Positions 4,111 through 34,089 of a stretch of DNA of 64,000 nucleotides are shown here, piece after piece. This stretch comes from Acidimicrobiia bacterium (GTDB lineage Bacteria > Actinomycetota > Acidimicrobiia > Spongiisociales > ZC4RG35): contig OZ244034.1 of assembly GCA_965215185.1 (NCBI GenBank), forward strand, positions 1,439,569-1,503,568. Direction: 5' to 3'. The notes beneath the pieces were generated by a model that worked only from the letters and a program-made list of their open reading frames with translations, was not told the DNA's origin and made no database searches. The position numbers and the translations under genes were made by a program. How positions within the stretch are numbered: the stretch's first letter is position 1; every line of letters starts with the position of its first letter.

Positions 4111-5210
4111 TCGCTAGAGCCCTCCACGAACAACCGACTCCCGCTCTGGTCATAGACACGGCGGTGATGGAACGGAACATCGCCGAAATGGCGCAACGGA
4201 TGAAAGACCTGGGAGTGGCGCTTCGGCCCCATTGGAAGACTTCCAAGATGGTGGAAGTCGCCCGCCTACAGAGCCAGGCAGGATGTGTGGGTTTCACATG
4301 CGCCACCCCGGCCGAGGTGGAGTGTCTCCTCGATCATGGATTTACCGACATCACTTGGGCTCATCAACCGGCGGGAGGTCCGAAGGTCGCCTTTGCATTG
4401 GAGGCCAACCGGCGGGGGCGGGTGCGGGTGGCGCTTGACTCTCTCGAGGTGGCTGCACCCCTGGCAAGAGCCGGCACGACGGCAGGAGTCGTGATTCCCT
4501 ATCTGATTGAGGTGGACACCGGACTGGGGCGGGCAGGAATCTCCCCTGATCAAGTGGTGAGCATGGCAGGCAGGATGGCTCGATTGGATGGCCTGCAGTT
4601 TGAGGGGATTATCACCCACGCAGGACACTTGAGCGGCTTCGGGGACAACCGGTCAGGCCTGGAAGCTGAGGGCCGAGCGGTGGGAAGGACCATGGTGAGA
4701 GTCGCTCAGGCGCTTAGCAATGCCGGTTTTCAGGTGTCGGTGGTGTCGGTGGGATCCACCCCGGGTTCCACCTCCACTCCCACCGTGCCGGGAGTCACCG
4801 AAGCCCGTCCCGGCACCTACGTGTTCAATGACGCCAACCAAGTGACGGTGGGAAGCACCACCCTTTCGGGGTGCGCCCTGACGGTGGCTGCCCGGGTGGT
4901 GAGCACTCCTCGATCCGGGGAGGCGATTATCGATGCAGGGAGCAAGTCAATGAGTTCTGACGGGCCTAGCTCCGGGGTCAGTTTTGGAAGAGTGTTGACC
5001 GAGGACGGCGCTTACGCCGATATCAGTTTCCACCGAGCCAACGAGGAGCACGGCTTCTTGCAAGGAACCGGCGTGGAGACACTCAAGGTAGGCGATATGG
5101 TGCGCATCGTTCCCAACCATGCCTGCGCCACGGTCAACATGTGGAGCCAGGCGCTGGTGATCGGGGATGACGGAACCCTTGATGAGTGGAGAGTCCGAGC
5201 CCGCCGCTGA
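4107..5210 (+). CDS. PLP-dependent alanine-racemase-fold protein, D-serine dehydratase-like / D-threonine aldolase family
   Basis: N-terminal PHWKTSKM (PLP-lysine context of fold-type III enzymes); 367 aa; ATGA start/stop overlap with upstream gene. Confidence 0.6.
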   Translation: MIARALHEQPTPALVIDTAVMERNIAEMAQRMKDLGVALRPHWKTSKMVEVARLQSQAGCVGFTCATPAEVECLLDHGFTDITWAHQPAGGPKVAFALEANRRGRVRVALDSLEVAAPLARAGTTAGVVIPYLIEVDTGLGRAGISPDQVVSMAGRMARLDGLQFEGIITHAGHLSGFGDNRSGLEAEGRAVGRTMVRVAQALSNAGFQVSVVSVGSTPGSTSTPTVPGVTEARPGTYVFNDANQVTVGSTTLSGCALTVAARVVSTPRSGEAIIDAGSKSMSSDGPSSGVSFGRVLTEDGAYADISFHRANEEHGFLQGTGVETLKVGDMVRIVPNHACATVNMWSQALVIGDDGTLDEWRVRARR

Positions 5211-9486: not shown

Positions 9487-10604
9487 CCAGACGGCGGGCG
9501 GCGGTATTCGGCGCCGGGAACATTGGACGGGGGCTGCTGGGGTGGTTGTTCGGCCGGGCAGGATGGGAAGTGGTTTTCGTAGATGTCTCTTCCGACTTGG
9601 TGGACCTCATAAACCAGGAGGGCTCCTACCAGGTATTTGAGGTGGGCACCGAGAGCCGATCAACCCAGTGGATTAGGGGCGTGAGCGCAGTTAACGGCAT
9701 GTGCCCAGAAGCCGTTTCCGCCACTGCTGCGGCGGAGGTGGTGTGCACTGCGGTGGGAGCCGGAATACTGGGTCGGGTGGCGCCCACCATCGCCGCCGCT
9801 CTTTCTATGAGCACCAGCCAGATTCGCAACGTGTTGGCCTGCGAAAACGCCGATCCCAACAGCGCCCTGCTGCTGCGGCATGTGGAGGGCCTGATGGGCA
9901 AGCGCCCGGCCGGTGTGGGGTTCCCCGAGACGCTGGTCGACCGAATGGTGCCCGGCTCCACCGCAGCAGGGTTGCAAGTGGAGGTAGAGGCGCGTTTCGA
10001 TTTCAAAGTGGCCAGAGAGGATTGGGTGGGAGACGATCCAGGCGTGGTGGGAGTGGAGTTGGTTGACAGCTTGAGGCTCTTCCGGAAGAGAAAGCTATGG
10101 CTGGTGAACGGACTCCATGCCGCCGGAGCCTTCCTGGGTTGGCATGCGGGGCACGAAACGGTGGCCGAAGCGGTCTCCGATCCCGCTATCCGGCCGCGAT
10201 TGGAACAAATAGCGGTCACAATGGCGGCGGTGCTCTTCGCGCAGTTGGAGGATTTGACCCAGGAGGAGTTGGCCGAGTACGGACTGTTCAACCTCCGACG
10301 GTTCGAGGACACCGCTTTGGTGGATCCCATCCGCCGAGTGGCGCGCAATCCCCTCCGCAAACTTGGCCCGACCGAGCGTCTGGTGGGTCCCGCCCGGGAA
10401 GCCGCGCGACATGGTCTTGCGGCTGACGCTCTGTGCGACGCCATTGTGGCCGGGCTCTCCCTCGATGACCAGCGGGTGGACGGGATGCAAGAGTTGCGAG
10501 ACGCGTTGCGCTCCGGGGGGTGGCAGTCGGTGGTGGGGCTGGGCGAAGCGGACCACAAACTGCTGGAGATGCTGGAAAAACGTTTGGAGACCACGAAAAG
10601 CTGA
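9483..10604 (+). CDS. mtlD: Mannitol-1-phosphate 5-dehydrogenase
   Basis: N-terminal AVFGAGNIGRGLLG Rossmann motif and downstream LACEN, NGLHA segments typical of MtlD; start placed at M 9483. Confidence 0.85.
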   Translation: MTRRRAAVFGAGNIGRGLLGWLFGRAGWEVVFVDVSSDLVDLINQEGSYQVFEVGTESRSTQWIRGVSAVNGMCPEAVSATAAAEVVCTAVGAGILGRVAPTIAAALSMSTSQIRNVLACENADPNSALLLRHVEGLMGKRPAGVGFPETLVDRMVPGSTAAGLQVEVEARFDFKVAREDWVGDDPGVVGVELVDSLRLFRKRKLWLVNGLHAAGAFLGWHAGHETVAEAVSDPAIRPRLEQIAVTMAAVLFAQLEDLTQEELAEYGLFNLRRFEDTALVDPIRRVARNPLRKLGPTERLVGPAREAARHGLAADALCDAIVAGLSLDDQRVDGMQELRDALRSGGWQSVVGLGEADHKLLEMLEKRLETTKS

Positions 10605-21189: not shown

Positions 21190-21857
21190 CGGGCCGGATC
21201 GGTTTCCGCAGCCCCCTGACGCTCTGATTCGGAAAGCGCCAAATTACAACCACCACAAATGCTTCCCTCCAAGCGACCGGCTGCCACTCCTCCCTTGCTT
21301 CGGCGAAGGGATTCGTACATCTCCAGAATCTCGGAGGGAACCGGGTCGGCGAGTTGGGCTCGATCGGACCGCAGTTTCGCCAATTCGGCGTCGATCTTCC
21401 CCCAGATCTTGCGAACCACCTCTCCCAGATCGCTCTCCAAGGACCGGGCTGTTTCCAATTCGGCCGACAACTCCCCCAGGCGGACCGAGACCTTCTCCCT
21501 GCGTTCCATCACATCCAGCGCTTCGGACTCCCTTTCGGTGATACGTACGCGCAGCGACTGCACTTCCAGCCGACGATTCTCGGTCTCTTTGGAAGTCATA
21601 CCCCCGCCGAACAGCCGCTTTTCAGATATTTTCAGCCGCTCCTCCATAATTTGCAACTCACCGTTGGCCTTGTCGAACTGCAGATCGAGTGACCTTGCCT
21701 CCCCGAGAATCTCGTCATGCTCAGATTCGACAGTCTGCCTTCTTTGGTGCAACCGCCGAAATTCCTCCCACTCCGGCAGGGTCACTTTCCTTCGCTCCAG
21801 CCGATCGATCTCCAGATCAATGGCCTGCAAGGCCACCAGGTCGTAGGAGAGATTCAT
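21156..21857 (-). CDS. C4-type zinc-ribbon coiled-coil protein (COG1579, Rv2229c-like)
   Basis: Coiled-coil body and a C-terminal CGGC...CPHC zinc ribbon. Confidence 0.6.
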   Translation of the reverse strand: MNLSYDLVALQAIDLEIDRLERRKVTLPEWEEFRRLHQRRQTVESEHDEILGEARSLDLQFDKANGELQIMEERLKISEKRLFGGGMTSKETENRRLEVQSLRVRITERESEALDVMERREKVSVRLGELSAELETARSLESDLGEVVRKIWGKIDAELAKLRSDRAQLADPVPSEILEMYESLRRSKGGVAAGRLEGSICGGCNLALSESERQGAAETDPARCPHCRRILVI

Positions 21858-22969
21858 GCCGACAAACTCCCCATCCTGATTATCGGACCCGGACGCAACC
21901 CGGTCAAGTCCAAGGTGTCAGGCGCCACCTGCGCCACCAGTTGCGCCAGCCTCCTCACCCCGGGCCCCTCAGTGGCGGCGTGTCCCGGATCGATCACCTC
22001 CACTCCCAGGTGTGCAGCCTGAGCCATCTGATGATGAGAAACGTCTCCGGTGACGATAAGGTCAGCGCCCGTGGCCGCGGCGGCCGTCAGAAAAGAACCG
22101 CCCGACCCGGGTAGGACCGCCACTTTAGCCACTTTCCTATAGCCCATTCGGCCGCAGCGCATGCCCACCACCCCTAATGCTTCGGCCACTCGGTCGGCGA
22201 ATTCATCCGCCGGGATCGGCTCGCCGAGCATTCCCACCCGCCCCACCATGGGAAGGTTGGCCGACACCGGGTAGAAATCAAATGCCGGCTCCTCGTAGGG
22301 ATGGGCAGCCACCAGCGCGGCAGCCAACGCCGACTTTCTCGCGGCGGGGGCGATCATCTCCAACCGGACTTCAGGAACCCGGTTGCGCTCTCCAACCTCT
22401 CCCAACACCGGAGCCGCACCCTTTTGGGGAAGAAAGCCTCCCACTCCTTGGCTTCGATAGCTGCACCCGCGGTACCTGCCGATCTGGCCAGCGCCAGCCG
22501 ACGCCAACGCCTCGGCCACCTGCTCGGTAGACCCGTCGGGTACAAAGGTCACCACTTTGACTTGAGGGTAGACATCCATAGGCCCGAAGCCCCTCACCTG
22601 CTCCAAGCCCAGGCTGGCAGCCAGAGCATCGGCCGCGCCACCGGTACAGACATCAAAAGCGGTGTGAGCCACAGCCAAGGCCACTCCCATTCTCACCAGC
22701 CGGAAGGCCAGACCCTCCGGCCCTGGCCCGGCTCGCAGGGAACGCAGCGGTCGGAACAGGAGCGGGTGATAGGTGACCAAAAGGTCCACCGGCTCCTCCT
22801 CCAAGACCCCCAGCACCTCGGCGGTTACCTCGTGGCATACCCCGGCCGTTCTCACCGGCTGTTCGGGATCGCCAAGCGTCAAGCCGCTCACATCCCATTC
22901 AGCCGCTTGATCCCAGGGAATTGAGGTGGAGAGCTCTTCCAGCACCGCAGCAACCGAGCGTTCAGACAT
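21854..22969 (-). CDS. Nif3 family dinuclear metal-centre protein (GTP cyclohydrolase 1 type 2 homolog)
   Basis: NIF3 motifs (VTYHPLLF, VLPGSGGSF, TGDVSHH, IDPGHAATE). Confidence 0.75.
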   Translation of the reverse strand: MSERSVAAVLEELSTSIPWDQAAEWDVSGLTLGDPEQPVRTAGVCHEVTAEVLGVLEEEPVDLLVTYHPLLFRPLRSLRAGPGPEGLAFRLVRMGVALAVAHTAFDVCTGGAADALAASLGLEQVRGFGPMDVYPQVKVVTFVPDGSTEQVAEALASAGAGQIGRYRGCSYRSQGVGGFLPQKGAAPVLGEVGERNRVPEVRLEMIAPAARKSALAAALVAAHPYEEPAFDFYPVSANLPMVGRVGMLGEPIPADEFADRVAEALGVVGMRCGRMGYRKVAKVAVLPGSGGSFLTAAAATGADLIVTGDVSHHQMAQAAHLGVEVIDPGHAATEGPGVRRLAQLVAQVAPDTLDLTGLRPGPIIRMGSLSA

Positions 22970-23245
22970 CCGATAAGAAGGGTACCGCGCCCCACCACAC
23001 TATAAACGGGAAACCTATGACCCGCAATAGGCGCGGCAAAAGAGAAATGGTGGGCCTCCAGGTACTGCACCGCGAACTTTCGAGCCGGGCATGACGCTGT
23101 AGCCACTATGCCTCCCGGGCGCCTCGGGCGGGGCCGTACTCAAGGAGCACCGAGCAGCCGGCGATGTTGGCCAAGTCGGATTCAAGGTCAAAGCATTGGC
23201 CAGCCACGATGTCGCAGTAGGAGTCGAAGAAATGGTGGCCAGTTT

Positions 23246-23322
23246 GCCACCACCCCTGACCTGCGCTATAGCAGGGGGTCTCGGGAGGACACCACAATTT
23301 AAGGAGGTAGGACACCACAATT
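23246..23322 (+). repeat. Roughly 77-bp repeat unit copy A, containing two copies of the 13-mer GGACACCACAATT
   Basis: About 85% identical to 24398..24475; 13-mers at 23288..23300 and 23310..23322. Confidence 0.8.
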
Positions 23323-23848
23323 GGAAACCACTCTAGAACGCGGCCCTAGAGTGGCCGCCGGAGCGAAACTGAAAGCACTCGACCAAGAACCGGGGTTCCC
23401 ATGTAAACGTGCTTCCCGGCAGCCGTTGCACGGCAAGCCGACCTACCCGACCCGCTTTTCGACCCAACACCAAGACCCCGGCGGAGCGTTGCAACCACCG
23501 GCGGGAACCAGATGACCACTCCTTTTGCTCGCTTAGCTATTTAGGGAACATCCACTCGAAGTGTCGTTCGCCGGACTCTACATGAAATACCCAATCCTCG
23601 AACCGATCGAGGAAAACCACCAGTTTCTGGTCGTAAACCCCGTATCCGGCATGCACAACCACATTGGGCCGATCCTCTGCGTCCAAGCCCGTTCAGACAG
23701 TGTCGGGGTGAGTTCAACCGCTTCTGATAGGAGCATGGTCTCCAATGGATTAACCAGGACTGCATCAATGTCGAATTTGGTAATCCCGTATTTGAGAGTT
23801 GATCGAGTTATGTAATCGAGTTATGTAGGGGACATCCCTCAAATGTGC

Positions 23849-24136
23849 CTAACGAACAGGAAATAGATAAGTTTCCACGCCTGCCCTTTGGGTGGGATTC
23901 AGGAGGCTGAGGATATGGTCGCGGTCCTTGATCGGGCGGTTAGCGATTCGGCGAGCCGCTCTTTCTGGACTGAGAGCGTTCAAATAGTATCGCCAGTCGT
24001 CATCTGTATAGGCATCGGCCATGGCATCCGCGATTCGCCGTGCCTGCTCTATTTCCTCGGGTCCGGCGGACACCCAATTGCTGGGATCGCGGCCCAACTG
24101 GCAGATAGCCTCTATCTTCTCTGGTGTCCACCGCAT
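23849..24136 (-). CDS. Small hypothetical protein (95 aa) embedded among the GGACACCACAATT repeat clusters
   Basis: ATG at 24136 inside the longer ORF 23849..24349; longer-ORF N-terminus is just translated repeat sequence. Confidence 0.3.
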   Translation of the reverse strand: MRWTPEKIEAICQLGRDPSNWVSAGPEEIEQARRIADAMADAYTDDDWRYYLNALSPERAARRIANRPIKDRDHILSLLNPTQRAGVETYLFPVR

Positions 24137-24300
24137 GTAACCCAAGCATAAAGCTCCCGTAGCGCGCCCTTGAACTAGACGCAAAGCCGTCTTCTTTCCA
24201 GACGATGATCGTGGGACCGGAACCTCACGACCCGCGCTTCGGTTGTCATGGCTCGTCTCCCCGCAACCCCATGGCGAAGTCCTGATTCTGTGAACGGTAA

Positions 24301-24351
24301 GGACACCACAATTCTGAGAGGGGGGGATGTGAGAGGGGGGACACCACAATT
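24301..24351 (+). repeat. Middle cluster: two copies of GGACACCACAATT separated by ggggggatgtgagagggg
   Basis: 13-mers at 24301..24313 and 24339..24351. Confidence 0.8.
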
Positions 24352-24397
24352 GGGAAGCACCTATCCACGGTGTCTCGGTTTTGGTTGGTGGGGGTTA

Positions 24398-24475
24398 GCC
24401 GCCACCCCTGACCTGCGCCTTAACAGGGGTTCTTGGGAGGACACCACAATTGGGGCAGGGAGGACACCACAATTC
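24398..24475 (+). repeat. Roughly 78-bp repeat unit copy B, containing two copies of GGACACCACAATT
   Basis: Direct repeat of copy A; 13-mers at 24439..24451 and 24463..24475. Confidence 0.8.
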
Positions 24476-25347
24476 TGAACCTCGTGAATTCCTCCTCATG
24501 CTGGGGGATTTACCTGGCCCTTCGCGAATTCGTGGGGCGCGAGAACCTTGGATTGTGAAGCTCAGTGGCCCAACTGTGTCGGATGAAGAACCATCGGTTG
24601 AGCCTTTGCTCTCGCCCTTGACCATCCAATTACGGTGGGCTGGCGCGAAAAAGCTATTTCCCGAAGTCAGAGGATTGCCCCAGAAAGATTTTGGAAGGGA
24701 TGTCCGCGGTAGTCGTTCCGGCTCCAGCGAAAGCACCTCGATTCCCTACAGGTACCTGGCGTGGAATACGCGGCACACCTCTCCGGGTTGCCTGAAGTCT
24801 TGCCTCAGGCCCACTTCTATTTCTCGCCAAGCCTCTCCCCTATACCTACCACCAAGCGATAAATCCAGTGTGTTGTTTTGCCCCGTGTCCCGCATCAAGC
24901 ATATCAGTATACTCAAAATACGGGTACTAGAAGGTCTTTAGTGTATCATGTACGCGTCAAGCCGCCAAGACCAATGTGCCGATTCGTAGTCTCTGGCTTT
25001 GATGAACTCCATCATCGACAGCCCATCCTCGCCGTAAGCACCCATCTGCCAAGGGATAGTGAGTTGCTCTGATAGGTCAAAACTTTGGTAGCACACGATT
25101 ATGTCGTCCATAAGTTCTTATATTTGTTCGAAGTCGTATGCTGGTAAACCCGGTGGGCAGCACACGTTCTCGGGGCCCTCTGTGATCATTTGTTTCACGA
25201 GAGCATCCACATCAACACTCGTGGCAGGGCGGGCGGTCATGGTCATACTCCCCTTCATTGTACTATCGGGATGGGTTGCACGCAACCATTAACCCCCGAT
25301 GTTTTACCTTGTGGGAAAGCGAACAATAGCACCAACCTCGGCAAGCT

Positions 25348-25791
25348 CTAGCGGTGGTTGCTCGTTAGTTGATTGTAGAGGTCCTGGGGGCTGTGCCAGT
25401 TGTGTAGTCGTCGTGGCATGAGGTTGAGGTTGTCTTCGATGATGGAGAGGGGTATTTGGCCGATGTTGAGGTTGGTGCTTTTGGGCAGCCAGCGGCGGAG
25501 CATGCCGTTGGTGTGCTCGTTGGTGGCCCGTTGCCAGGGTGATCGGGGGTCGCAGAAATAGACCGAGAGACCGGTCTGCTGTTCGACAGAGCACCATTGG
25601 CTCATTTCTCTTCCTTGGTCCCAGGTGAGCGTTTTCCGCAGAGGTTTGGGAACGCGGGAGAAGGCGTCGCAGATGGCCTGGGCGGTGTGGGGAGCGCGGT
25701 AGCCGTTGGGCAGAGCGGCTAGGAGGGTGTGGCGGGTGACCCGTTCGGTGAGCGTTACCACCGCCGTGCGGTTGTGGGCGCCGATGATCAA
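25348..25791 (-). pseudogene. IS30-family transposase, C-terminal DDE-domain fragment (N-terminal about 200 aa missing)
   Basis: VVTLTERVTRHTLL, VYFCDPRSPWQRATNEHTNGMLRRWLPKST and NLMPRRLHNWHSPQDLY match the IS30 integrase core. Confidence 0.75.
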
Positions 25792-25935
25792 ATCGCCTCA
25801 CCGAGTGACCGGGTTCGAGGCGTTCCTCGATATCGGGAGGACGGTCACCGATGGGTCGGATGTCACCGAGTGGGCTGCGTTTTGCCTGTTCACAGCGGCT
25901 GCGTGGCTTCCGCCGCCTGCGGCGGCTTGGCCGTA

Positions 25936-26110
25936 CGTCTTCTGTGTTCTGGTAGATGGAAGGTAGGGGGGATCGACGTAGATTAGGCAGTCCTGGCCGG
26001 AGAAGCGCTTCATGACATCCAATGCCGGTCGGTTCTCGATTTCAGCGTCTTTCAGACGGTTTGCCAGTTCAGCCAACTCAGACGGAACTCGCTGCCATCG
26101 AATCGACATT
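25936..26110 (-). pseudogene. DNA adenine methyltransferase (Dam/D12-class) fragment
   Basis: IENRPALDVMKRFSGQDCLIYVDPPY corresponds to the Dam motif-IV region (DPPY); flanking sequence is unrelated. Confidence 0.45.
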
Positions 26111-26320
26111 CCGCGCGCGCTGCTTCGACCCGCGGTTCTTCCATCCCGTTTTCTTTGCCAGGTCGCTGGCGTGGGCCTGCCAAACCCGAACGACGAACCT
26201 GCGGGCATCTTCGAGCGAATCGCCGGTCCCCGTGTCCGACAAGTCGTATTACTCTCTTGACCAGGGAGTTGTCTCCAACAGCCAGCACAACTCGGCGGTC
26301 TGATAGCGCAGAGCACGGAA

Positions 26321-26986
26321 GAAGTTGACTACTTCTCCATTCAAGTCGTTGACAAGCTCATCCTCAAACTCCTCACCGAAGGAACGGGAGTCAACGCCAC
26401 CACCCGCATAGTCGGCTGTTCCAAAAACACCGTCCTCAAACTCCTCGCCGACGCCGGACGCGTCAGCGCCCAATATCAAGACCAAACCCTCCGGAACTTG
26501 GAATGCCGCCGCATCCAAGCCGACGAAATCTGGTCGTTCGTGTACGCCAAGAAAGACACCCAGACAGACAACCCCGAAACTGGTGATATGTGGACATGGG
26601 TACCGATCTGCGAAGACAGCAAACTCATACCGACCTGGTGGATCAGCGACTGCACCTACAACACTGGCGTTCTGTTCATGGAAGACCTCGCCAGTCGCAT
26701 GGCTCATCCCATCCAGCTAACCACCGACGGGCTCGCCGCATACCTCGACGCCGTCCAGGACTCCTTTGGTGACTGGATGGTCGACCACCGAATCCTCAAA
26801 CGCAAATACCCCACCGCCCAGACCGCTCGCACCAGCTACATCGAGCCGCAGAACCTCACCATGCGCATGAACATCCACCGCTACTCGCGGCGCACCAACG
26901 CCTTCTCCGGCGCCCTCTTGGTGCGGCAGGCCCCTCACTGCCGCATCTCTGGCGGCGGCCGGCGTGAGTTCGGAGCCCCGGGATAG
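26321..26986 (+). mobile_element. IS1-family transposase remnant (fused InsA-HTH/InsB-like frame, N-terminal zinc finger missing)
   Basis: LTEGTGVNATTRIVGCSKNTVLKLL resembles the InsA HTH; DEIWSFVYAK, ITTDGLAAY and IEPQNLTMRMNIHRYSRRTNAFS resemble InsB; no start codon upstream of the HTH part. Confidence 0.65.
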
Positions 26987-27572
26987 GGCCTTCGTGCGGA
27001 GGGAGCGCGACACCGGCATCCTCGAGGCGTGGGGCACTGTGAGTCCGGAAATCAACCAGATAGCTACGCGATGGAGGCGGAAACTCGCCGGTTTCCACGA
27101 GATAGTGGATGCCTTGGGGGTGGATGTCGGTCCTAACGATGCTCTCCGTTCGCAAGCGGGCATGTTGCTGTCAATGTGTTCGAATGCGGACCTGATGGAG
27201 GAATGGCGGGAGAGAAGGGAGAAACTCCGTCCCGAAGGGGAGGTTCCGGATTGGTACGGGCTCATAGCGGATGTGAATGAACCGGCCTGCATAGTGGCCT
27301 CCGTCCTCCTTGCCGGAGAGGCAAAGAGGCTACGGTGGGCGGGGGTGACCATGGCGGGGGATCCCTCTCCTGTTGATGCTTCTTTCTCCGCAACCGCATT
27401 GCGGTTCGGCACCTTAATAATGATTGTGGCGACCTCTATTGTTTTGACTTGGGTTCTGTTCCGAGGCGACCAAGCCACCATCCTCAAAGCCCGGGCGAGC
27501 GCCGAAAGCGCGGCGACCTGTTCCATTCTTGATGGTATCTGGAACGCAGATAATGACCCGCCATGCAGATAA
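26964..27572 (+). CDS. Hypothetical protein with one C-terminal TM helix (island cargo)
   Basis: 202-aa ORF; codon third-position composition differs from core genes; immediately upstream of the nucleotidyltransferase gene. Confidence 0.4.
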   Translation: MSSEPRDRAFVRRERDTGILEAWGTVSPEINQIATRWRRKLAGFHEIVDALGVDVGPNDALRSQAGMLLSMCSNADLMEEWRERREKLRPEGEVPDWYGLIADVNEPACIVASVLLAGEAKRLRWAGVTMAGDPSPVDASFSATALRFGTLIMIVATSIVLTWVLFRGDQATILKARASAESAATCSILDGIWNADNDPPCR

Positions 27573-27691
27573 GTTCCTTCAAAAGCTATTGACCCAGACC
27601 CCCGATGGGGCCAGGGACTACTCGGTCGACTTGCCCGCCTCGGGGAAATTGTCTTTGGTCGAGAAGATAGGGCTCCCTTATGATCCGCCTT

Positions 27692-28825
27692 ATGACTGCG
27701 ACCAATATCACATCGGTTCCCACTGTGGGGGATGCCCGAAGGGTGGCCGATGTGTTGCCGGGTAGCGTGTTGCTGTTCGGTAGCGTCGCCAAGAACAAGG
27801 CCACTTCCCGGTCGGACATCGACCTTCTGGTCATCCTCGACCACATAGACAGAGACGACCAGAGGCAACTGTTGATGTATCTGGATCACCTGGAAAACAT
27901 GGCCTACGAAGTAGACGAGCGGGCGAACATAGTGGTGATCGACTGGCCGGAGTGGGAATCCCGCCGGAGGGTGCCTCCCAGGGTGGAACACGCAGCCGAC
28001 GCACACGGCATTTGGTTATGTAGACATTCTCCCGGACCTTCTGTAGAATGGGGGAAGATGAAAGACATTCGGCAGGAAACTACGGATACTCTGTGTCACC
28101 ATTTGAGCAACGTTGAAGCCCACCTTAGCCATGCGAACAATCAACTACATCCAAACCATGAGGAACGTTATTGCATTAAGACTCGGGACGAAGATTCGTA
28201 CTGGGGGCAGGTGCGGTTCCGGCTGTCGGCGCTAAACCACTTTTGCCATGTGGTGCTTGAAGAGTCCCTGTTAGCGCTATGTTGTCTGACCGGACAGCCT
28301 TACCATAAGGATCGCCAACACAAGCTGACGAGAATCTTTGAGCGGCTTCCCGACGAACTGCAACGTGTCATGTTGAACATGGATCCCCCCTTGGACGAAG
28401 AGGCCATGGTGTGGATACAGAAGTGGCGGAATGTCAGCACTTACGAGGATGCCTTGCGTCTGTCTACCACTCCCGAGACCACCGAGAAGTTGGGATGGGT
28501 CGCCTCTGATGTGGCCTCACTCACCCACCAAATGGTAGATGTGGCCATCGGAACAACAATCTACGGCGTCTACACAGCCACCATCGCCGACCTAGTAGTT
28601 CGCTTCGTGTATATGGAAGCCAACAATGGAAAACCCGCGTTTGTTGTCACAAACCAATTGGAGGGCAGGGTAGCAATTATGGGTCGAATAATAGATCGGA
28701 TGCGCGTAAGGCTATCCACCAAGGAGTGGCTGTATCCGGGCGGCGTGCCGCCCCACGGGTGGAAATTACCTCCGGCACACCAACCACCCAATGTGTATCT
28801 TCCGTGGGGCGAAACCTGGGACTAG
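27692..28825 (+). CDS. Minimal nucleotidyltransferase (Pol-beta superfamily) domain protein with about 270-aa uncharacterised C-terminal domain
   Basis: LLFGSVAKNKATSRSDIDLLVILD is a canonical GS...DxD NTase motif; C-terminal part contains RLSALNH (Rx5H, HEPN-like). Confidence 0.55.
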   Translation: MTATNITSVPTVGDARRVADVLPGSVLLFGSVAKNKATSRSDIDLLVILDHIDRDDQRQLLMYLDHLENMAYEVDERANIVVIDWPEWESRRRVPPRVEHAADAHGIWLCRHSPGPSVEWGKMKDIRQETTDTLCHHLSNVEAHLSHANNQLHPNHEERYCIKTRDEDSYWGQVRFRLSALNHFCHVVLEESLLALCCLTGQPYHKDRQHKLTRIFERLPDELQRVMLNMDPPLDEEAMVWIQKWRNVSTYEDALRLSTTPETTEKLGWVASDVASLTHQMVDVAIGTTIYGVYTATIADLVVRFVYMEANNGKPAFVVTNQLEGRVAIMGRIIDRMRVRLSTKEWLYPGGVPPHGWKLPPAHQPPNVYLPWGETWD

Positions 28826-28856
28826 GCGGGACACTGCCGCCCTAAATATCTGACAC

Positions 28857-29300
28857 TCACATCAGAGATGTCTGCGCATGCCGCGTTTGGCGGGAATGCC
28901 CCTCCGTACATCCCCTCATAGACACACCCTCCGTCATATAACAACTAGAGCACACCGCGTCGGGAAACACGAGTTCATGTCCCACCCGACCCCGGGGATT
29001 CCACATGAGAAAGCCTCGGGCGCATACGTTGATTACAGAGTTGATGTCTCTGCATATGGGTAGTCCACACTGTTCGCACCGGAAGATCCGTGCCGAGAGG
29101 GGCATCTTCTGGCGATGCCCGCATCGGGAACAGTCGGTGGAGTCGCCCGACCTACCCGGGCAAGTGGTGGAAATGGGGGGAAAGCCGCACACGCGGTACA
29201 TCACCCCCGGCGCCGAGCCGATCATCGCCACTGCCCGGGTCGCCGTCCTGTGTCCATGGGAGTCGCCCGTCGAACTGGTCGACTCAGGCTTGTCTGAGGA
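28857..29300 (-). pseudogene. IS200/IS605-family TnpB (OrfB) C-terminal fragment
   Basis: CSRCGHRQKMPLSARIFRCEQCGLPICRDINSVINVCARG is the TnpB zinc finger plus RuvC-III motif. Confidence 0.55.
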
Positions 29301-29529
29301 GGAGATAAACGAGAAGGCTCTGATATCCGGCTCCCTCGAGCAAGCGGCACTCAGGAGGCAGATGTCCCCCTTTCCCGCCAACAAGTCGGTGACTGAGCAT
29401 CTGTGGACGATCATGCAGACAGACGCCTCTCCCCTGTCCTCTTTGCCCTGATGCCCGGCCGTGTACGCTTGGCAACTGCGGGTGCGCTTTGAGACCGACG
29501 ACGGAGGGTCCACCGAGGAATCGTGGGAG

Positions 29530-29847
29530 ACCATCCACAAGCGTCAGAAGATGCCCTTGGAAGTGAGGATGTGCCGGTGCGAGCAGTGTGGGCTGGTCAT
29601 GTGCAGAGACGTCAACTCTGCCGTCAATGTACGCGCCCGGGGCTTTCCTACCCATAAACCTCGGGGTCGGGTGGGTCATGACCTGGTGTATCCCGACGCG
29701 GTGCGCTATGCAAACCTCTGTTGTAAGACAGTGATCGGTTCAGGCCGAACGATGCAGGCAGACACCGCAGAACAGTATCACCTAGATGACTCTGTCAACC
29801 TAGGTAGACGCAAACCCCCAGAACACGGCCAGCGGGGTTATCGCTAA
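29530..29847 (+). pseudogene. Second, diverged TnpB C-terminal fragment in inverted orientation
   Basis: HKRQKMPLEVRMCRCEQCGLVMCRDVNSAVNVRARGF is paralogous to the minus-strand fragment. Confidence 0.55.
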
Positions 29848-30047
29848 GCGAAGAACGCCGTCTAGGCGTTCGGGATCTATCCATCCCGAACCTCCCAACA
29901 CCACCGCTGTGAACCATACTCCCCACCAACCCCCCAGCAATTGCTGATCACCTTCGTCTTGCTGCATCCAAGCGGCATGCTCCCGACGGATGCGGGTCCA
30001 CTCTTTATGTAAGCCCTTTGGCACCATTCCTGCTTACCCGTGCTCGA

Positions 30048-31000
30048 TCAGGCCTGGACACCGAAGTTATCCGATCGGGCGGTTACCTCCATTACAGCGT
30101 CCTCGCTCGGCCGGGGGTACCGGTCGAGCCTTCTGCGGTCGTGGTGGCGGCTTTTGGCCTGCAACAGTGCCGTGTTCACTGAGTCCTGAGCTAGATGGGT
30201 AAGGCAGGGGTGGCGGAGTTGGTGGAGTGTCCATCCGCCAACCTGGCTGCCGGCTTCTGTCTGCGCGGTGGCGCGTTTGAAGATCCGGGCGGCGCGGTGG
30301 TAGGTCAGCGGGCCAGCCCCGTGCCAGGGCAGAGATCTCGCGCCGGGAGGATCGCCTGCGGTTTGCGGTGGGTGACGAATACAGACCCCCGGCGACGCCC
30401 GGCCAGGTACCGAGGAAGCAGTCGGTCGGTACCAGAGGCCCAATGGATACGTTGACGATGCCCACCCTTGCCGATGATGGTCGCTCCGTTGTGGGACAAG
30501 TCCAAGTCCTCAATGTTCAACGCCAGGACTTCGCTGGCCAGTGCTGCGGTCTCGTACAGCATTCGCCACATAGTTTTCTCCCACAGGTCAATATCTCGCC
30601 GGCACCAGAGCGGTGCCAAGGTGTCGAGCGGGATCGCTTTGGTCTCGTCGCGCTCGATACGCCCCGGCTCGACCCGTACCATCGGCTCGTCGGTGATCCA
30701 GTTGCGTCTCTCGCAGAAAGCCATCAACGACCTAGCCCTGATGCGATGGGTGTTCCAGGTGGACGGCATGGCCCCTCGGTCGTGTCCCCATCGCCGGAGG
30801 AACGCCGCCCCGACCGCTTCCGCCTCGATACGGTTGATCGGGATCTCCCAGCCCAGCTCGTCACCGAGAGCGTCGAGCGTCTGCTGGTAGCCGCGGCGGC
30901 TGTTCGGTCGCAGCTCCTTGGCGGCGAAGAAAGTCTCAACGGCCGTGCGGATCACCGGCCCGCGACGATAGTCGGCCAAGACTGCAACTGGACTGGTCAT
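30048..31000 (-). pseudogene. Tyrosine recombinase / phage-type integrase, frameshifted
   Basis: ORF 30305..31000 carries the core-binding and N-terminal catalytic parts; ORF 30048..30443, in another frame, carries AARIFKRAT...HQLRHPCLTHL...LDRY (HxxR...Y catalytic tail). Confidence 0.65.
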
Positions 31001-31307
31001 TGGTCAAATCCCCTCTTTAGGTCAGATGTTTCGCTGGGGTCATGCAGAAAGGCTAAATGCGGAACGCCAGCAAGCAGCGCATTGTCGAACCGGTCTAGGA
31101 CAGATATTGAGGGAATATCTGACCTATTTGGGCCGAGCCCAGCCCGGTACGGCTCGGAGCATTCTTGTTGACCGACTCCCGGTCCGGACATTGGGAAATG
31201 CAGCAGCCTGATGGGCGGTGCCGTCGGCTGTGGCTTGGCCCTTGGGGTGCATCCGGGCGTTCGGAGGTGGAAGGTCCATATCCGGCCGAAGCCTCTTACG
31301 TGAAGAC

Positions 31308-32648
31308 TCATAAGCCAATATCGAAAGCTGTGGAGCCGTTGGGTCGCAACTGGGGATGGGCTTCGCTTGGGTCGTCCAACCAAGCTGGCGCGTCCCTGGC
31401 CGTGGGGCTTTGTAGCGACAAGTCTCTGTCCAGCCGTGTGATAAGACCGATGACATCGGGTGTTTCGAACACCCGGTAACGTTCCTTGCCGATAGTCCTG
31501 ACTTTAAGCACACCCGATTCGGTGAGTTGGTTCACGGCCTGACCGGTAGCCACCGTCGACCGACGGATCATCATGCCAGCCGAGCGAACGGTGAAGATGG
31601 GCCAAGCAGCTAACCCACCCAAGAGCAGGTCTGCTGCGGACCCCTTGCGAACTGGTCCCGCCCGGGAGCGCAGGTCTGCCTCTAGGGAGGACACGGCTTG
31701 CAGATAGTTGTGCGCCTCGTGGCAGGCGTCCTGGGTAGCCTCCGAGAACAGACCCAGCCATTCCTCCGCGCTGTGGTCGCGAGCTGGGTCGTCGGCCGAT
31801 CCCACATGTCGCCACGCTCTAAGACCCTCGAAGTAGGCATCGCGGGAGCGGGCCAGCACGGCGCTGATGGGCGGCACAAACGCCGGAGCAACACCCCTCC
31901 TCCGGAGAACGGCGTGGATCAAGGCGCGTCCAACCCGGCCGTTACCGTCGGCGAACGGGTGAATTGTCTCAAACTGGGCGTGGGCGACTCCCGCTTGCAG
32001 CAGCGGCGGAACATCTGATCGGTTCACAAAGGCCACAAGATCCTCCAGGAGCGCAGGAACTTCCTCAGGTGGAGGAGGAACAAAAGAAGCACCCACCGGC
32101 GTGTAGCTCGAAGCACCGATCCAGTTTTGGACATCCCGAACCCAGCCTCCCAAACCAGGATGCGCAGACGCTGCCATCAGCCGCCGGTGCACCTCCAACA
32201 GATCGTCCGATCGTAGCGGCCCCCCACCAGAAGCCAAACGGATCGCTTCTTCCATCGCTTCGATGTTTGCCAACACCTCCACCGCTCGCCGATCCGACGA
32301 CCGGCTCCCCTCACGGTGTTCGGCCTCCGCTGTAAGCAACCGCCGCGGGGCAAGCTCGATCTCCTCTATCCTCGACGACGCCATAGCTTCCACCCGCAGC
32401 AGCACATGGGAAAAGGTGTCCAACGGGTGGGGGCCACTTCCTGCGTACCGCCTGTTCAGCGCCGCCACCGCTGTCTCGGCTTCACCCACCGTTGCCATCA
32501 ACTCCAGCGACAAGCGAGGCGCCCACCCTGAGAGACAGTCTGGCACATAAGCCTCGTACCGCCCCCCGCGTCTCTTTCTCGCCACCGAGGCGTCGAACCG
32601 GGAGCGCCAGTACCTAGCGACATACCGGCCCATAACCTTTCCTCCCAA
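31308..32648 (-). CDS. Fic/DOC family protein (AMPylator-type) with C-terminal winged-helix domain
   Basis: Canonical Fic motif HPFADGNGRVGRAL. Confidence 0.8.
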   Translation of the reverse strand: MGGKVMGRYVARYWRSRFDASVARKRRGGRYEAYVPDCLSGWAPRLSLELMATVGEAETAVAALNRRYAGSGPHPLDTFSHVLLRVEAMASSRIEEIELAPRRLLTAEAEHREGSRSSDRRAVEVLANIEAMEEAIRLASGGGPLRSDDLLEVHRRLMAASAHPGLGGWVRDVQNWIGASSYTPVGASFVPPPPEEVPALLEDLVAFVNRSDVPPLLQAGVAHAQFETIHPFADGNGRVGRALIHAVLRRRGVAPAFVPPISAVLARSRDAYFEGLRAWRHVGSADDPARDHSAEEWLGLFSEATQDACHEAHNYLQAVSSLEADLRSRAGPVRKGSAADLLLGGLAAWPIFTVRSAGMMIRRSTVATGQAVNQLTESGVLKVRTIGKERYRVFETPDVIGLITRLDRDLSLQSPTARDAPAWLDDPSEAHPQLRPNGSTAFDIGL

Positions 32649-32690
32649 CTAACCTAACAACAGCATCAACTCTAACCTTAGCTTACAGAG

Positions 32691-33203
32691 GTGGAGCGGT
32701 CGGTAGGGTTCTCCGGTATGAGCAAACCGGTGGAGTGGGGATCCCTTGAGCTGCCGATCCGGCCCGACACCATCATCTCGGAACCGGCCGAGCCTAGGCG
32801 TCCACTTCGGGCCTGCCACCTGCCGGCCATCATGGATGAGGACGACTGGTTCGATGCCTACCGGTACGCGCTCATCCAGTTCGTAGCCGACTGGAACCAC
32901 TCTAACGATCCAGAAGCGTTGATCGCTGACCCTCCTGTGTATGAGGGCGATGACTGGCGGCTTCTGCCCACCATCGCCTCAGTGGTGCATGCTCTGGCGG
33001 ACAGAAAGACTCTGACCGTACCCGAATGGGTATGGGGACACAAAGCACCCGAAGAATGGGTGGTGTTCTGCGATCCTCCCGGTTCCTATTTCTGGCGGCT
33101 GGAAAAGCCGAAGGCACCCTCTACCTGCCTCCACCATCGGGTCTATTTCAATCCACGGCTGTTGGACAAAGGCACCCCCGACTGGTGGCTGCCCTGGAAC
33201 TAG
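32691..33203 (+). CDS. Hypothetical protein divergent from fic
   Basis: 170-aa ORF, no recognisable motif. Confidence 0.3.
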   Translation: MERSVGFSGMSKPVEWGSLELPIRPDTIISEPAEPRRPLRACHLPAIMDEDDWFDAYRYALIQFVADWNHSNDPEALIADPPVYEGDDWRLLPTIASVVHALADRKTLTVPEWVWGHKAPEEWVVFCDPPGSYFWRLEKPKAPSTCLHHRVYFNPRLLDKGTPDWWLPWN

Positions 33204-33613
33204 ACCGACACTCCATCCTCCTGCTCATCCAAAAGGTTGATAAGCAACTGGAAGCCATCACCACCCGGCGGCATAACCTGATGATCGCAGGAGGTGCAGC
33301 GGTGGCTTTGCTGTGGGATGATCAGGTATTTTGCCTTCCTACCCAAGAACGGCCTGCCCCCACTATGAGCAGCACTAGGATTCCTGTGCCGGTCCCATGG
33401 TGCTCTTCGACTAACCGTCACTCACCAGCACCATCCGAAAAATGACCCATGAATGGCCCTTGACACCCCAATGCTTCGGACAGCGTTCACAGCGTATGAA
33501 CCTAAAGGGCTCTTCGCGAAGCCTCACCTAAAGACCCGATAAGGGTTGCTAGTGTTACCGTAAGTGATACCAGACCCCGTCATAACGCCTCTGACCAGGG
33601 GAAACAGGGGTTG

Positions 33614-33686
33614 TGGGCGTTGACGGAATCGAACCGCCGACCTCTTCCTTGTAAGGGAAGCGCTCTTCCATCTGAGCTAAACGCCC
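33614..33686 (-). tRNA. tRNA-Val (anticodon TAC)
   Basis: Reverse complement GGGCGTTTAGCTCAGATGGAAGAGCGCTTCCCTTACAAGGAAGAGGTCGGCGGTTCGATTCCGTCAACGCCCA folds as a cloverleaf with GTTCGATTC T-loop and anticodon loop CTTACAA; CCA is not encoded. Confidence 0.8.
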
Positions 33687-33717
33687 GGCCGTCTCCCTAT
33701 ATTACGACCTCTGTCGA

Positions 33718-34089
33718 TCAGGCGGTCTTTTCCATCGGCGACAGCTCGTGCACTAACTCCCACAGTTCCTTTCTCGAGGCTTCCACCGGCAAGGATGCCT
33801 CATCGGCCCGGGGCCGACCCGGAGGCCTCTTGCGGTAGTAGGCATTGCCATCCCAGAACAGAATGCCTCCCCAGACCCCGTATTCCATTTCCGTGGTCAA
33901 GGCGTACTCAAGGCAAGCCACCCGAGCATTCAGTGGACAGGTGCCGCAAATCAGCTGGGCGACTCGAACGGCTTCACTTTCGTTGGTGAAGAAGCCGTAA
34001 GTCTCAACGGAGCCGTAACAGGCGCCGTTGCTCTCCAGCGTATTCCTCAATATTTCCAGTCTGGTTGATAGGTTCATTTGTATCTCCAA
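33718..34089 (-). CDS. WhiB-family transcriptional regulator
   Basis: Four Cys in the WhiB arrangement (C..ICGTCP..C) and the GVWGG motif. Confidence 0.75.
   Translation of the reverse strand: MEIQMNLSTRLEILRNTLESNGACYGSVETYGFFTNESEAVRVAQLICGTCPLNARVACLEYALTTEMEYGVWGGILFWDGNAYYRKRPPGRPRADEASLPVEASRKELWELVHELSPMEKTA

Follow-up and report, generated by a model that had tools for sequence, protein, structure and literature searches.

A decaying, multi-event genomic island at a tRNA-Val gene in an uncultured member of the Acidimicrobiia

Organization of the locus

Analysis of the window, a stretch of 64,000 nucleotides from an uncultured Acidimicrobiia bacterium, revealed about 10.6 kb of foreign DNA adjoining a tRNA-Val gene. 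The island extended from the tRNA-Val 3' end (33612) to the upstream region of nif3 (about 23048). The features of the locus are listed below in window coordinates; loci from other genomes carry L numbers.

21854-22969, minus strand: nif3 (DUF34/NIF3; Pfam E 2e-53), conserved low-coordinate flank
23048-23078, minus strand: candidate eroded tRNA-Val 3' relic (attR-like) ending in GCCCACCA, from local alignment; would mark the distal island end
23241-23322, plus strand: repeat copy A, ~82 nt (repeat search, motif count; nhmmer E 3e-25)
23849-24136, minus strand: orf95, 95 aa, between repeat copies (called as a gene in the near-identical L081)
24299-24351, plus strand: partial repeat copy, two 13-mer boxes only (motif count; nhmmer E 6e-5)
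24393-24474, plus strand: repeat copy B, ~82 nt (repeat search, nhmmer)
24539-29649, no strand: 5,111-bp inner segment absent from L081 (blastn)
24930-25250, minus strand: ORF pseudogene with an in-frame stop, in the lowest-GC patch (six-frame translation)
25348-25791, minus strand: IS30 transposase fragment limited to the C-terminal half (NCBIfam IS30 E 2e-40, covering model positions 141-267 of 267; Pfam rve)
25798-26707, minus strand: D12-class N6-adenine DNA methyltransferase pseudogene (Pfam MethyltransfD12; PADLOC MTase_II E 5e-24)
about 26357-26983, plus strand: IS1-family transposase remnant (NCBIfam transpos_IS1; Pfam DDE_Tnp_IS1 E 6e-4)
26964-27572, plus strand: orf202, ORF with a hydrophobic C-terminal helix
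27680-28825, plus strand: nucleotidyltransferase (NTase), intact, 381 aa (Pfam Polbeta, NTP_transf_2)
28857-29540, minus strand: TnpB fragment a, C-terminal (Pfam Cas12f1-like_TNB E 1e-7; NCBIfam guided_TnpB positions 346-388 of 389)
29461-29847, plus strand: TnpB fragment b, C-terminal, inverted relative to fragment a (Pfam TNB E 6e-5)
30048-31000, minus strand: Xer-like tyrosine recombinase pseudogene (Pfam Phage_integrase, alignment)
31308-32648, minus strand: Fic/DOC AMP-transferase, SoFic type, intact (PADLOC SoFic; Pfam Fic, E 5e-22, and Fic_N)
32691-33203, plus strand: orf170 (ORF; accompanies the Fic module in L086, the recombinase in L083)
33613-33686, minus strand: tRNA-Val(TAC) (ARAGORN; Rfam 71 bits)
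33718-34089, minus strand: whiB-like gene (Pfam Whib E 6e-11), conserved high-coordinate flank

The initial annotation had placed the island between nif3 and tRNA-Val, and both flanks and nearly all of the items that it named were recovered at the positions it had given: the frameshifted tyrosine integrase, the IS30 fragment, the Dam methyltransferase fragment (a broken D12, Dam-type gene), the IS1-family remnant, the two inverted TnpB 3' fragments and the Fic protein. The lower-GC stretch that it had seen at about 23.5-25.3 kb was confirmed by GC and tetranucleotide profiles. GC content fell to 53.8% (23.5-25.5 kb) and 55% (27.5-29 kb), compared with 60.9% outside, and the tetranucleotide distance reached its window maximum in the lowest-GC patch (z = 3.9), with two patches at z = 2-4. 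The whole island had a GC content of 58.6% against 60.9% outside, and a Mann-Whitney test gave p = 3e-7, a value that is overstated because the windows overlap. The recombinase-Fic part (29650-33612) was host-like, with 60.8% GC, and would therefore be old or exchanged within the clade. Two outcomes named at the outset as speaking against an island, namely relatives with these genes in a conserved setting, or no compositional deviation together with no att repeat, were not observed.

The insertion site and its occupancy in relatives

Orthologues of nif3 with 71-79% amino acid identity were found in 12 related species, with synteny kept on the nif3-distal side, and the upstream alignment showed that about 45 nt 5' of the nif3 start codon were conserved across relatives. 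The whiB-like flank was syntenic in L001, L012 and L081. The related species L001 was collinear with the window from 13258 to 43548 (~30 kb) except for 22999-33600, and its tRNA-Val ended 74 bp before nif3; the 10.6 kb is therefore an insertion. The short spacer of L001 aligned with the nif3-proximal 80 nt of the window, with ~77% identity over 121 aligned nt upstream of nif3. On the tRNA side, the similarity to L001 and L012 ended directly after ..GCCCAC, which set the proximal island boundary at the tRNA-Val 3' end (33613). Relative to the empty site of L001 the segment is inserted at the tRNA-Val 3' end, in agreement with the initial annotation, which had proposed an island next to tRNA-Val and a synteny comparison with relatives lacking it.

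The same site held different DNA in other relatives. In L012, the gap between tRNA-Val and nif3 contained 3.3 kb of other genes (SDR, cupin, AAT-like), and in L002 and L003 a displaced copy of the tRNA-Val 3' end lay directly 5' of nif3, with 30 of 35 nt matching and none of 300 shuffles scoring as well. The comparison with L002-L011 covered 10 kb upstream of nif3, and the DNA there may represent islands or parts of larger rearrangements. Apart from the TnpB stubs, no island ORF had a counterpart at the 12 syntenic loci. Because relatives carry different DNA here and two of them a displaced tRNA-Val 3' copy, the site is regarded as a tRNA integration hot spot, which by these alignments appears to be used across the clade.

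A direct att repeat, which the initial annotation had expected near 22.9-23.3 kb, did not emerge clearly. No 24-mer in the window matched the tRNA 3' end at 19 or more positions, and local alignment yielded only the 31-nt relic at 23078-23048, with ~22 of 33 aligned columns matching the tRNA 3' half by hand count. It scored 26, whereas shuffles averaged 18.6, and since 10 of 300 shuffles were as good, the signal was weak. The spacing between this relic and nif3 equalled that of the tRNA end of L001 and of the clear relic of L002 and L003. Because the window's relic is marginal, we infer tRNA-targeted integration from the sister species and not from the window.

Mobile-element remnants and continuing decay

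The recombinase was split into two parts, 30305-31000 and 30048-30443, which corresponded to positions 19-101 and 103-167 of the Phage_integrase profile and were separated by a single 1-nt frameshift near 30309. Alignment with eight intact homologues showed that the invariant catalytic arginine I was replaced by leucine (ETAALASE vs ETAAR). The same 231-aa truncation was present in L081. The family is Xer-like, with members of ~305 aa, and its other members were found in IS- and defence-rich regions; no tRNA lay within 10 kb of them at four other loci. The resident recombinase, located 2.6 kb from tRNA-Val, may therefore be a passenger and not the integrating agent. A recombinase module (31125-30078) was 84% identical in L083.

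The other mobility genes were also broken. A 587-bp IS30 stub with the identical truncation point occurred at 95% identity at the unrelated locus L083. The methyltransferase consisted of two out-of-frame pieces, 25798-26316 and 26249-26707, which matched MethyltransfD12 positions 139-200 and 29-79; the IS30 remnant lay on one side of it and the IS1 remnant (NCBIfam E 3e-15; 56.7 bits, below the family cut-off of 100) overlapped the other. TnpB fragment a was recognisable only by its C-terminal zinc-finger/RuvC-III portion (about residues 134-177). The two TnpB fragments formed a 166-nt inverted repeat with arms at 28949-29114 and 29542-29707 that were 77% complementary. The ORF at 24930-25250 had no Pfam match. 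The initial annotation had regarded nearly every mobility gene as inactivated; the recombinase, IS30, IS1 and TnpB genes are in fact all dead, and the island is now unable to excise by itself.

The initial annotation had also suggested that the cargo may now be fixed, which the conspecific strain L081 contradicted. In this strain, with 99.7% and 98.8% identity in the flanks, position 29650 was joined directly to 24538 (blastn), with only AGGTT-type microhomology at the junction. The missing 5,111 bp held two coding sequences, orf202 and the NTase, together with the ORF pseudogene, TnpB fragment a and what is left of IS30, the methyltransferase and IS1; fragment b was kept only from 29650 onward. 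The arm at 29542-29707 spans the junction and differs from its partner by 23%, and its continuity therefore predates the strain split. By parsimony, the difference is probably a deletion in L081, and decay of the island appears to be continuing.

Repeats of the nif3-proximal block

The repeat arrays of the initial annotation turned out not to be arrays; a single repeat family is present in 2.5 dispersed copies. In copy A, two GGACACCACAATT boxes with a spacing of 23 nt came after a conserved core, ..GCCACCACCCCTGACCTGCG... This 13-mer occurred six times against 0.06 expected, within two repeat copies of 82-88 nt. In L091, L090 and L083, the ~82-nt repeat followed an IS1182-like transposase gene at a distance of 50-250 nt, and the repeats are interpreted as solo end-pieces of such an IS1182-like element. 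Searches of Pfam, NCBIfam and PADLOC assigned orf95, earlier called the repeat-associated ORF, to no family.

Retained genes

The Fic protein matched positions 6-358 of 361 of the PADLOC SoFic model (E 1e-68), and its HPFADGNGR motif was intact. The gene is under purifying selection, with a dN/dS of 0.09-0.18 that was comparable to that of nif3 (0.17). Homologues with 78-99% identity were found in four other genomic contexts. The Fic module (32970-30966) was 96% identical in L086, where Fic and part of orf170 lay in a different neighbourhood, whereas in L087 and L088 Fic stood alone among metabolic genes. SoFic is an abortive-infection AMPylase whose mechanism and AS1 antitoxin have been described (PMC12249575). 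No small antitoxin gene was identified with the island Fic, nor could a small gene resembling AS1 be recognised downstream of it. Fic is the best-supported functional cargo, with a SoFic function predicted by homology. The adjacent orf170 matched no Pfam, NCBIfam or PADLOC family; its homologues had amino acid identities of 94% over the N-terminal 94 residues in L086, 48% over 176 residues in L083 and 42% in L091, and its dN/dS was 0.25 with saturated dS.

The NTase combined an MNT-like minimal NTase N-domain with an all-helical C-terminal domain of ~250 residues. Its family was small and clade-restricted (only 22 homologues at E <= 1e-5), and it scored 30 bits against NCBIfam MntA, below the cut-off of 60. 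The AlphaFold2 model had a mean pLDDT of 70.7; a Foldseek search with it matched MNT antitoxins over the N-domain only and gave no match at E <= 1e-3. Copies occurred at 77% identity in L086 and 76% in L091, and the dN/dS against L091 was 0.27. In L091 the orf170-like ORF lay ~7.5 kb from the NTase homologue, and Fic and the recombinase were absent. The initial annotation had described an NTase operon. The intact gene was confirmed, and the operon was not supported, because relatives shared only the NTase gene and ~55 nt of leader and not the upstream ORF. In L086 and L091 this ORF, orf202, was missing beside the NTase homologue, and it could be placed in no family with Pfam, NCBIfam or PADLOC. 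Two or three island genes are still under selection.

Origin of the island

The data are best explained by horizontal acquisition of the 10.6 kb in a clade-wide hot spot, as a mosaic built in several steps and not as one element (probability about 0.7). The content is modular, with Fic, recombinase, IS30 and NTase pieces recurring separately elsewhere at 77-96% identity. The founding event would have been integration by a tyrosine recombinase into the tRNA-Val 3' end, and later growth may have come from IS insertion and from recombination, whether illegitimate or homologous, among IS-rich islands. The first, tRNA-proximal layer comprises orf170, the SoFic-type Fic and the now dead Xer-like recombinase. 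The middle layer, a 'graveyard', holds the broken D12 methyltransferase between the IS1 and IS30 remnants, the two TnpB 3' stubs and the intact NTase; insertion of IS1 and IS30 probably broke the methyltransferase, and both transposases would have been truncated later. The third, nif3-proximal layer consists of the solo end-pieces of the IS1182-like element and a small ORF. The retained Fic may act as a SoFic-type abortive-infection AMPylase, a function that would explain why it survives while the rest erodes.

An unlikely and already disfavoured alternative is a single element, in which the recombinase at 30048-31000 served as integrase into tRNA-Val, brought in all of the cargo and then decayed in place. 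The recombinase pseudogene does lie on the tRNA-proximal side in the orientation of the tRNA, the entire block is absent from L001 and a weak tRNA-like relic is present at the far end. However, the Fic, recombinase, NTase and IS30 pieces were found apart in L083, L086, L087/L088 and L091, the GC content of sub-blocks differed sharply (53.8% vs 60.8%), and the remnants came from at least five IS families. The methyltransferase broken between IS30 and IS1 remnants implies serial events. The distance of the recombinase from the tRNA, the lack of tRNA linkage of its family at four other loci and the missing att repeat argue in the same direction, and together with the mosaic modules they run counter to the typical tRNA-associated integrative-element architecture of the initial annotation.

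Descent from old chromosomal DNA, deleted in L001 and replaced in other relatives, is improbable. None of the 12 related species had these genes at the syntenic site, the L001 spacer aligned as for an unoccupied site and the content was mostly mobile-element debris; an L001-like genome had its Fic homologue elsewhere (L088, probably the same genome). These observations outweigh the host-like GC of the recombinase-Fic block, the widespread Fic homologues of the clade (70-81% identity) and the L081 deletion, which shows that deletions occur here. A metagenomic mis-assembly or repeat-made chimera, although repeats and IS fragments are abundant and recur at other loci and an exact look-up of the window's proteins gave no match, is very improbable, since L081, an independent assembly from a different ENA sample, reproduced both outer junctions and ~5.5 kb of island at 98.8-99.7% identity, a 100%-identical NTase (BLASTP, rounded) is on record on a 3.12-Mb contig, and the inner-segment ends do not lie at repeats except for the old 77% inverted repeat.

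Comparison with known systems

Parts of the proposed mosaic resemble known systems. Like the single-gene anti-phage system SoFic (PADLOC PDLC03963), the island Fic matched the full-length profile, had Fic_N and Fic domains with the HPFx(D/E)GNGR motif and is under purifying selection; it differs in its actinobacterial host, the lack of an AS1-like downstream gene and a divergent neighbour, orf170, and is known here from sequence. The ~82-nt repeat resembles the ends of IS1182-like elements and their solo, MITE-like relics in its position just 3' of the transposase in L091, L090 and L083 and in its repeated 12-13-nt boxes, which differ between sub-families. All copies within one locus had a single orientation, in contrast to such elements, and a search of the opposite ends of the IS1182-like transposase genes revealed no inverted box copies.

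Islands and integrative elements associated with tRNA genes have a tyrosine integrase and an att repeat that originates from the 3' end of the tRNA; Williams is said to have treated tRNA and tmRNA integration sites in 2002. The present island shares with them the insertion exactly at the tRNA 3' end, the empty site in a relative, the displaced tRNA 3' copy in sister species, a tyrosine recombinase gene and a partly atypical composition. It differs in its multi-origin content, its lack of a clear att repeat and its short, dead, Xer-like recombinase, which is not adjacent to the tRNA and belongs to a family without visible tRNA linkage. In defence islands and hot spots of horizontal transfer, defence genes and mobile-element debris cluster at a few recurrently used sites. 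Likewise, the cargo at the tRNA-Val/nif3 site differed between species, the island combined numerous IS fragments with an MNT-like NTase, a SoFic-type gene and the remnant of a type II methyltransferase, and its modules were common to other IS- and defence-rich loci (L083-L086, L091), although it is small and has one recognised intact defence gene, putative from sequence. The island is an ordinary, decaying, multi-event one; genomic islands of this kind are common, and it does not constitute a new system.

Acquired DNA at the tRNA-Val site

Syntenic loci from 12 related species (L001-L012) were fetched via the Nif3 protein, and all ORFs of the window were compared against them. The closest relatives were Acidimicrobiia metagenome-assembled genomes, with Nif3 at 71-79% amino acid identity. 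The nif3-distal genes were collinear with the window in all 12 loci. In L001, collinearity continued beyond the island as well, through whiB, PGI and eight more ORF matches to w43548 (w marks window coordinates; about 30 kb of flanking collinearity), and only 74 bp separated the end of tRNA-Val from the start codon of nif3. On this comparison of sequences, the site is empty in L001 and holds about 10.6 kb of additional DNA in the window. A relative lacking the island, with which the initial annotation had proposed to compare synteny, was thus available in this locus. L012 also kept whiB and tRNA-Val, but 3.3 kb of other genes (a short-chain dehydrogenase, a cupin and an AAT-like acyltransferase) preceded nif3. 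Synteny was lost upstream of nif3 in the remaining ten loci, within the 10 kb examined. Unrelated TnpB stubs aside, none of the 12 loci contained a counterpart of an island ORF at the syntenic position.

The tRNA-Val(TAC), the sole tRNA found, was located on the minus strand with its 3' end toward the island. Similarity to L001 and L012 stopped right after this 3' end (..GCCCAC), at 33613. The bases following the tRNA were CAA in the window and in L081, a contig of a near-identical strain, in place of the encoded CCA of L001 (9926-9929), and therefore the island junction would coincide with, or fall inside, the final bases of the tRNA (33613). Two properties of an integrative island, location at a tRNA 3' end and an empty site in a relative, were thus found. 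The profile searches also recovered the inventory listed earlier, as follows.

Features of the island and its borders (window coordinates)
21854-22969, Nif3
25348-25791, C-terminal half of an IS30 transposase (model positions 141-267 of 267)
within 25798-26707, D12 N6-adenine methyltransferase in two out-of-frame pieces
about 26357-26983, IS1 remnant (profile positions 48-199 of 199, below cut-off)
27680-28825, nucleotidyltransferase (NTase)
28857-29540 and 29461-29847, two inverted TnpB C-terminal stubs (last ~45 residues only)
30048-31000, split tyrosine recombinase
31308-32648, Fic
33613-33686, minus strand, tRNA-Val(TAC)
33718-34089, WhiB, with PGI further out

The initial annotation had expected a direct repeat of the tRNA-Val 3' end at the far border of the island. 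Exact, 3-mismatch and sliding 24-mer searches of 20-33.5 kb returned a chance 11-mer only: no match to the 22-mer of the tRNA 3' end was found with three or fewer mismatches, and no 24-mer reached 19 matches. No direct-repeat family in the window involved the tRNA-Val. A clear copy was therefore lacking in the window, and a weak relic surfaced solely when the sequences upstream of nif3 were aligned with those of all relatives, through L001-L003. In L002 (CBDFJY010000002.1) and L003 (OZ253443.1), a 35-nt copy of the 3' part of tRNA-Val, with 30 identical positions (0 of 300 shuffles were as good), preceded nif3 by about 80-115 nt (~9887-9921 in the coordinates of the loci); the intact tRNA-Val of these two species, with any integrase, lies outside the 10 kb examined. 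As read from the alignment, such a displaced copy is what integration into a tRNA 3' end classically leaves behind. The corresponding place upstream of nif3 in the window held an eroded stretch (23078-23048) that ended in GCCCACCA. It matched the tRNA in about 22 of 33 aligned columns; its score was 26, shuffled sequences averaged 18.6, and 10 of 300 of them did as well. It is possibly a relic of the tRNA-Val 3' end. Inward of it, no similarity of the window to L002 or L003 was found. Integration targeted to the tRNA was demonstrated for the site in the sister species, and for the window we infer it. The empty site of L001, the alternative cargo of L012 and the tRNA relic of L002 and L003 together upheld the claim that the DNA was acquired at a tRNA hot spot.

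A probable mosaic with dead mobility genes

The recombinase was a pseudogene with a single 1-nt frameshift near 30309. After repair of the frameshift, its whole length could be aligned with that of intact 300-320-aa homologues; catalytic arginine I was replaced by leucine (ETAALASE, against ETAAR in 8 of 8 aligned homologues). The frameshift and the lost arginine therefore make two inactivating lesions. No complete IS30, IS1 or IS200-605 (TnpB) gene with element ends was present in the island, partial genes only. The mobility genes are dead, as had been proposed, and the calls for recombinase, IS30, IS1, TnpB and methyltransferase should be annotated as pseudogenes. Live-gene status is left only for Fic (SoFic-type), NTase and perhaps orf170 (32691-33203) and orf95 (23849-24136), two ORFs without family. 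Pfam matched zero families in six-frame translations of 22970-25350, an Rfam scan of the island (E <= 1) matched the tRNA alone, and a promoter and terminator scan gave the same counts as shuffled sequences.

Fic and orf170 separated the recombinase from the tRNA, over a distance of 2.6 kb, and no functional integrase adjoined an att site in the window. The recombinase family (~305 aa, Xer-like by NCBIfam) was rejected as tRNA-targeting, since none of the four inspected contexts had a tRNA within 10 kb. Intact relatives adjoined type I restriction, GmrSD and transposase genes. In the stretches 11143-19363 of L084 and 17919-20024 of L085, both loci elsewhere, intact Xer-like recombinases neighboured a type I restriction-modification operon that carried an additional HsdM_N fragment, as well as a DUF433/DUF5615 pair and a GmrSD gene. 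A role of this family in shuffling defence loci is conceivable.

The composition of the island was uneven. GC was 61% for the window, and 58.6% in the island versus 60.9% outside. The patch at 23.5-25.5 kb had 53.8% GC and the maximal tetranucleotide deviation of the window (z = 3.9), and a second patch at 27-30 kb had z = 2.1-2.6, with 55% GC at 27.5-29 kb. These two patches carried most of the deviation, and the recombinase-Fic block (29650-33612) was host-like at 60.8% GC. Second in rank among the tetranucleotide outliers was w47756-50362, which encoded an ordinary-looking 868-aa protein with two periplasmic-binding-protein domains that was not island-like. A 787-aa protein at w58743-61106 combined SLH, CAP and PD40 beta-propeller domains, and akin SLH/PD40/Tricorn-like genes recurred in the variable IS-rich loci L084-L086.

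Pieces of the island recurred separately at other loci. The Fic module (w30966-32970) was found at 96% identity at L086 9664-11664, in a different neighbourhood of IS30-like, ISL3 and IS110 genes with a degraded NTase copy. The recombinase module (w31125-30078) was found at 84% identity in L083, where it was broken too and adjoined an orf170 homologue. The IS30 stub (587 bp) occurred in L083 at 95% identity with the same truncation point, and therefore the fragment was copied or exchanged after truncation. The stub and 135 bp adjacent to it (w25340-25926) corresponded to L083 19755-20341, an unrelated locus with a shared breakpoint. In L091, an NTase homologue (70% amino acid identity) had small unknown ORFs and genes resembling toxin-antitoxin systems as neighbours. 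In the window, the methyltransferase was broken, with the IS1 remnant to one side of it and the IS30 remnant to the other. The separate modules, the uneven composition and the broken methyltransferase point to a mosaic of several events rather than one decayed element. The typical architecture of a single integrative element, as first described, was not recovered, as the modules recurred separately and no clear att repeat was found.

Ongoing loss within the species

A search with the repaired recombinase returned a 99%-identical copy with the same truncation on the independent contig L081 (sample ERZ25069191). This contig followed the window at 99.7% identity from w40997 to w29650, jumped directly to w24538 and continued at 98.8% identity to w15195. 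It had the same outer junctions and was without 5,111 bp (24539-29649), a segment that contained the IS30, methyltransferase and IS1 remnants, orf202 (26964-27572), NTase and one TnpB stub. Only AGGTT-type microhomology was found at the L081 junction. In the window, one arm of the TnpB inverted repeat (29542-29707), which has 77% complementarity with the other arm, crossed the junction uninterrupted; the intact old arm indicates that the window state is older and that L081 is a deletion. The idea that the cargo was now fixed is contradicted by this loss of 5,111 bp, including NTase, in a conspecific strain.

The Fic and nucleotidyltransferase genes

The Fic gene contained Pfam Fic and Fic_N domains and matched the PADLOC profile SoFic PDLC03963 with an E value of 1e-68 over model positions 6-358 of 361. 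The NCBIfam SoFic score was 58.8 bits against a cut-off of 550, and therefore the protein is not an equivalog by the NCBI criterion. The catalytic motif HxFx(D/E)GNGRxxR was kept in the translation: HPFADGNGRVGR (HPFADGNGR). The dN/dS of Fic was 0.09-0.18 versus 0.17 for nif3, and Fic is under purifying selection.

The NTase had 22 homologues at E <= 1e-5 in a collection of 5.8 billion proteins and a dN/dS of 0.27. It combined an MNT-like N-domain with a conserved helical C-domain and a C-terminal WLYPGG motif, and it carries a GS...DxD motif. The AlphaFold2 model had a mean pLDDT of 70.7, and searches with profile-versus-PDB comparison and with AlphaFold2 and Foldseek gave nothing significant for the C-domain, beyond the N-terminal MNT-like fold. 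The “NTase operon” with the upstream orf202 did not hold, as orf202 was not conserved beside NTase in L086 or L091.

Bare Fic genes were located between metabolic genes at L087 4414-5794 (81%) and L088 9949-11241 (76%), as a unit of about 1.4 kb from ~40 nt upstream of the start through the stop codon, with no adjacent mobility gene. Together with the 96% Fic and the NTase copy in IS-rich L086, they are the grounds for another reading, in which Fic and NTase would be self-contained defence cassettes that move between islands and metabolic operons without an adjacent mobility gene. We consider it improbable. If it were true, the tRNA-Val site would count as just one landing pad among others, and the NTase family as a new defence or toxin gene.

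Repeats as candidate relics of IS ends

The 13-mer GGACACCACAATT occurred six times and was confined to the island within the window. It was carried by two copies of 82-88 nt (23241-23322 and 24393-24474) and one partial copy (24299-24351). The unit was sharply bounded, and besides the conserved core ..GCCACCACCCCTGACCTGCG.. it held two boxes at a distance of 23 nt. Across the family, units were ~82-150 nt long with two or three boxes of 12-13 nt that differed between sub-families, and the copies within any locus shared one orientation. L091 contained five to six copies and L083, L085, L008 and L011 weaker ones; a scan of metagenomes with the motif found one contig present in two samples, and viral contigs gave zero matches.

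Repeat copies at two other loci (locus coordinates)
L091: 2452-2532, 3603-3680, 6374-6453, 9305-9385 and 12944-13024, following plus-strand ORFs at 1-4 kb spacing
L090 (JGI metagenome contig): 519-599 and 4473-4554

In L091 (four times), L090 and L083, the unit followed an IS1182-like DDE transposase gene, 50-250 nt beyond its C-terminal end. No trace of this transposase was found in the window. Neither inverted boxes on the far side of the transposase genes nor an opposite (left) element end was found. The window copies are best read as putative solo relics of the downstream end of an IS1182-like element. In an integron-like cassette array, attC-like imperfect palindromes bounded by RYYYAAC...GTTRRRY accompany an IntI integrase, and the cassettes share one orientation. 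It was rejected because there was no long palindrome, the GTT end was on the wrong side of the ORFs, inverted boxes were not found, and the units were linked to the IS1182-like transposase. The consensus fold, weak at -8.3 kcal/mol and with unconvincing covariation, spoke against this array and against a structured RNA, which was rejected too.

Comparison with known systems

In MNT-HEPN (type VII) toxin-antitoxin systems, a minimal NTase of ~100-140 aa is paired with a HEPN toxin gene. The NTase described here was rejected as such a system, as it has 381 aa, scored 30 bits with MntA against a cut-off of 60 and has no HEPN neighbour; the likeness of fold is confined to the N-domain. SoFic has been described (PMC12249575) as an abortive-infection AMPylase, and in E. 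coli a small antitoxin encoded downstream keeps its toxicity in check. Unlike in E. coli, no small downstream antitoxin gene was recognised here, and none was identified as a candidate at 31000-31308. The full-length profile match, the Fic_N and Fic domains and the catalytic motif are shared with the SoFic system. Overall, this is an ordinary, still-eroding genomic island of a well-known kind with one recognisable defence gene; it gives no new mechanism and settles no open question. It is a clean, well-bounded case of a tRNA hot spot gaining, shuffling and losing foreign DNA in an uncultured Acidimicrobiia lineage, where an unoccupied site, other cargo at the same place, a displaced copy of the tRNA end and a deletion between strains of one species can all be compared.
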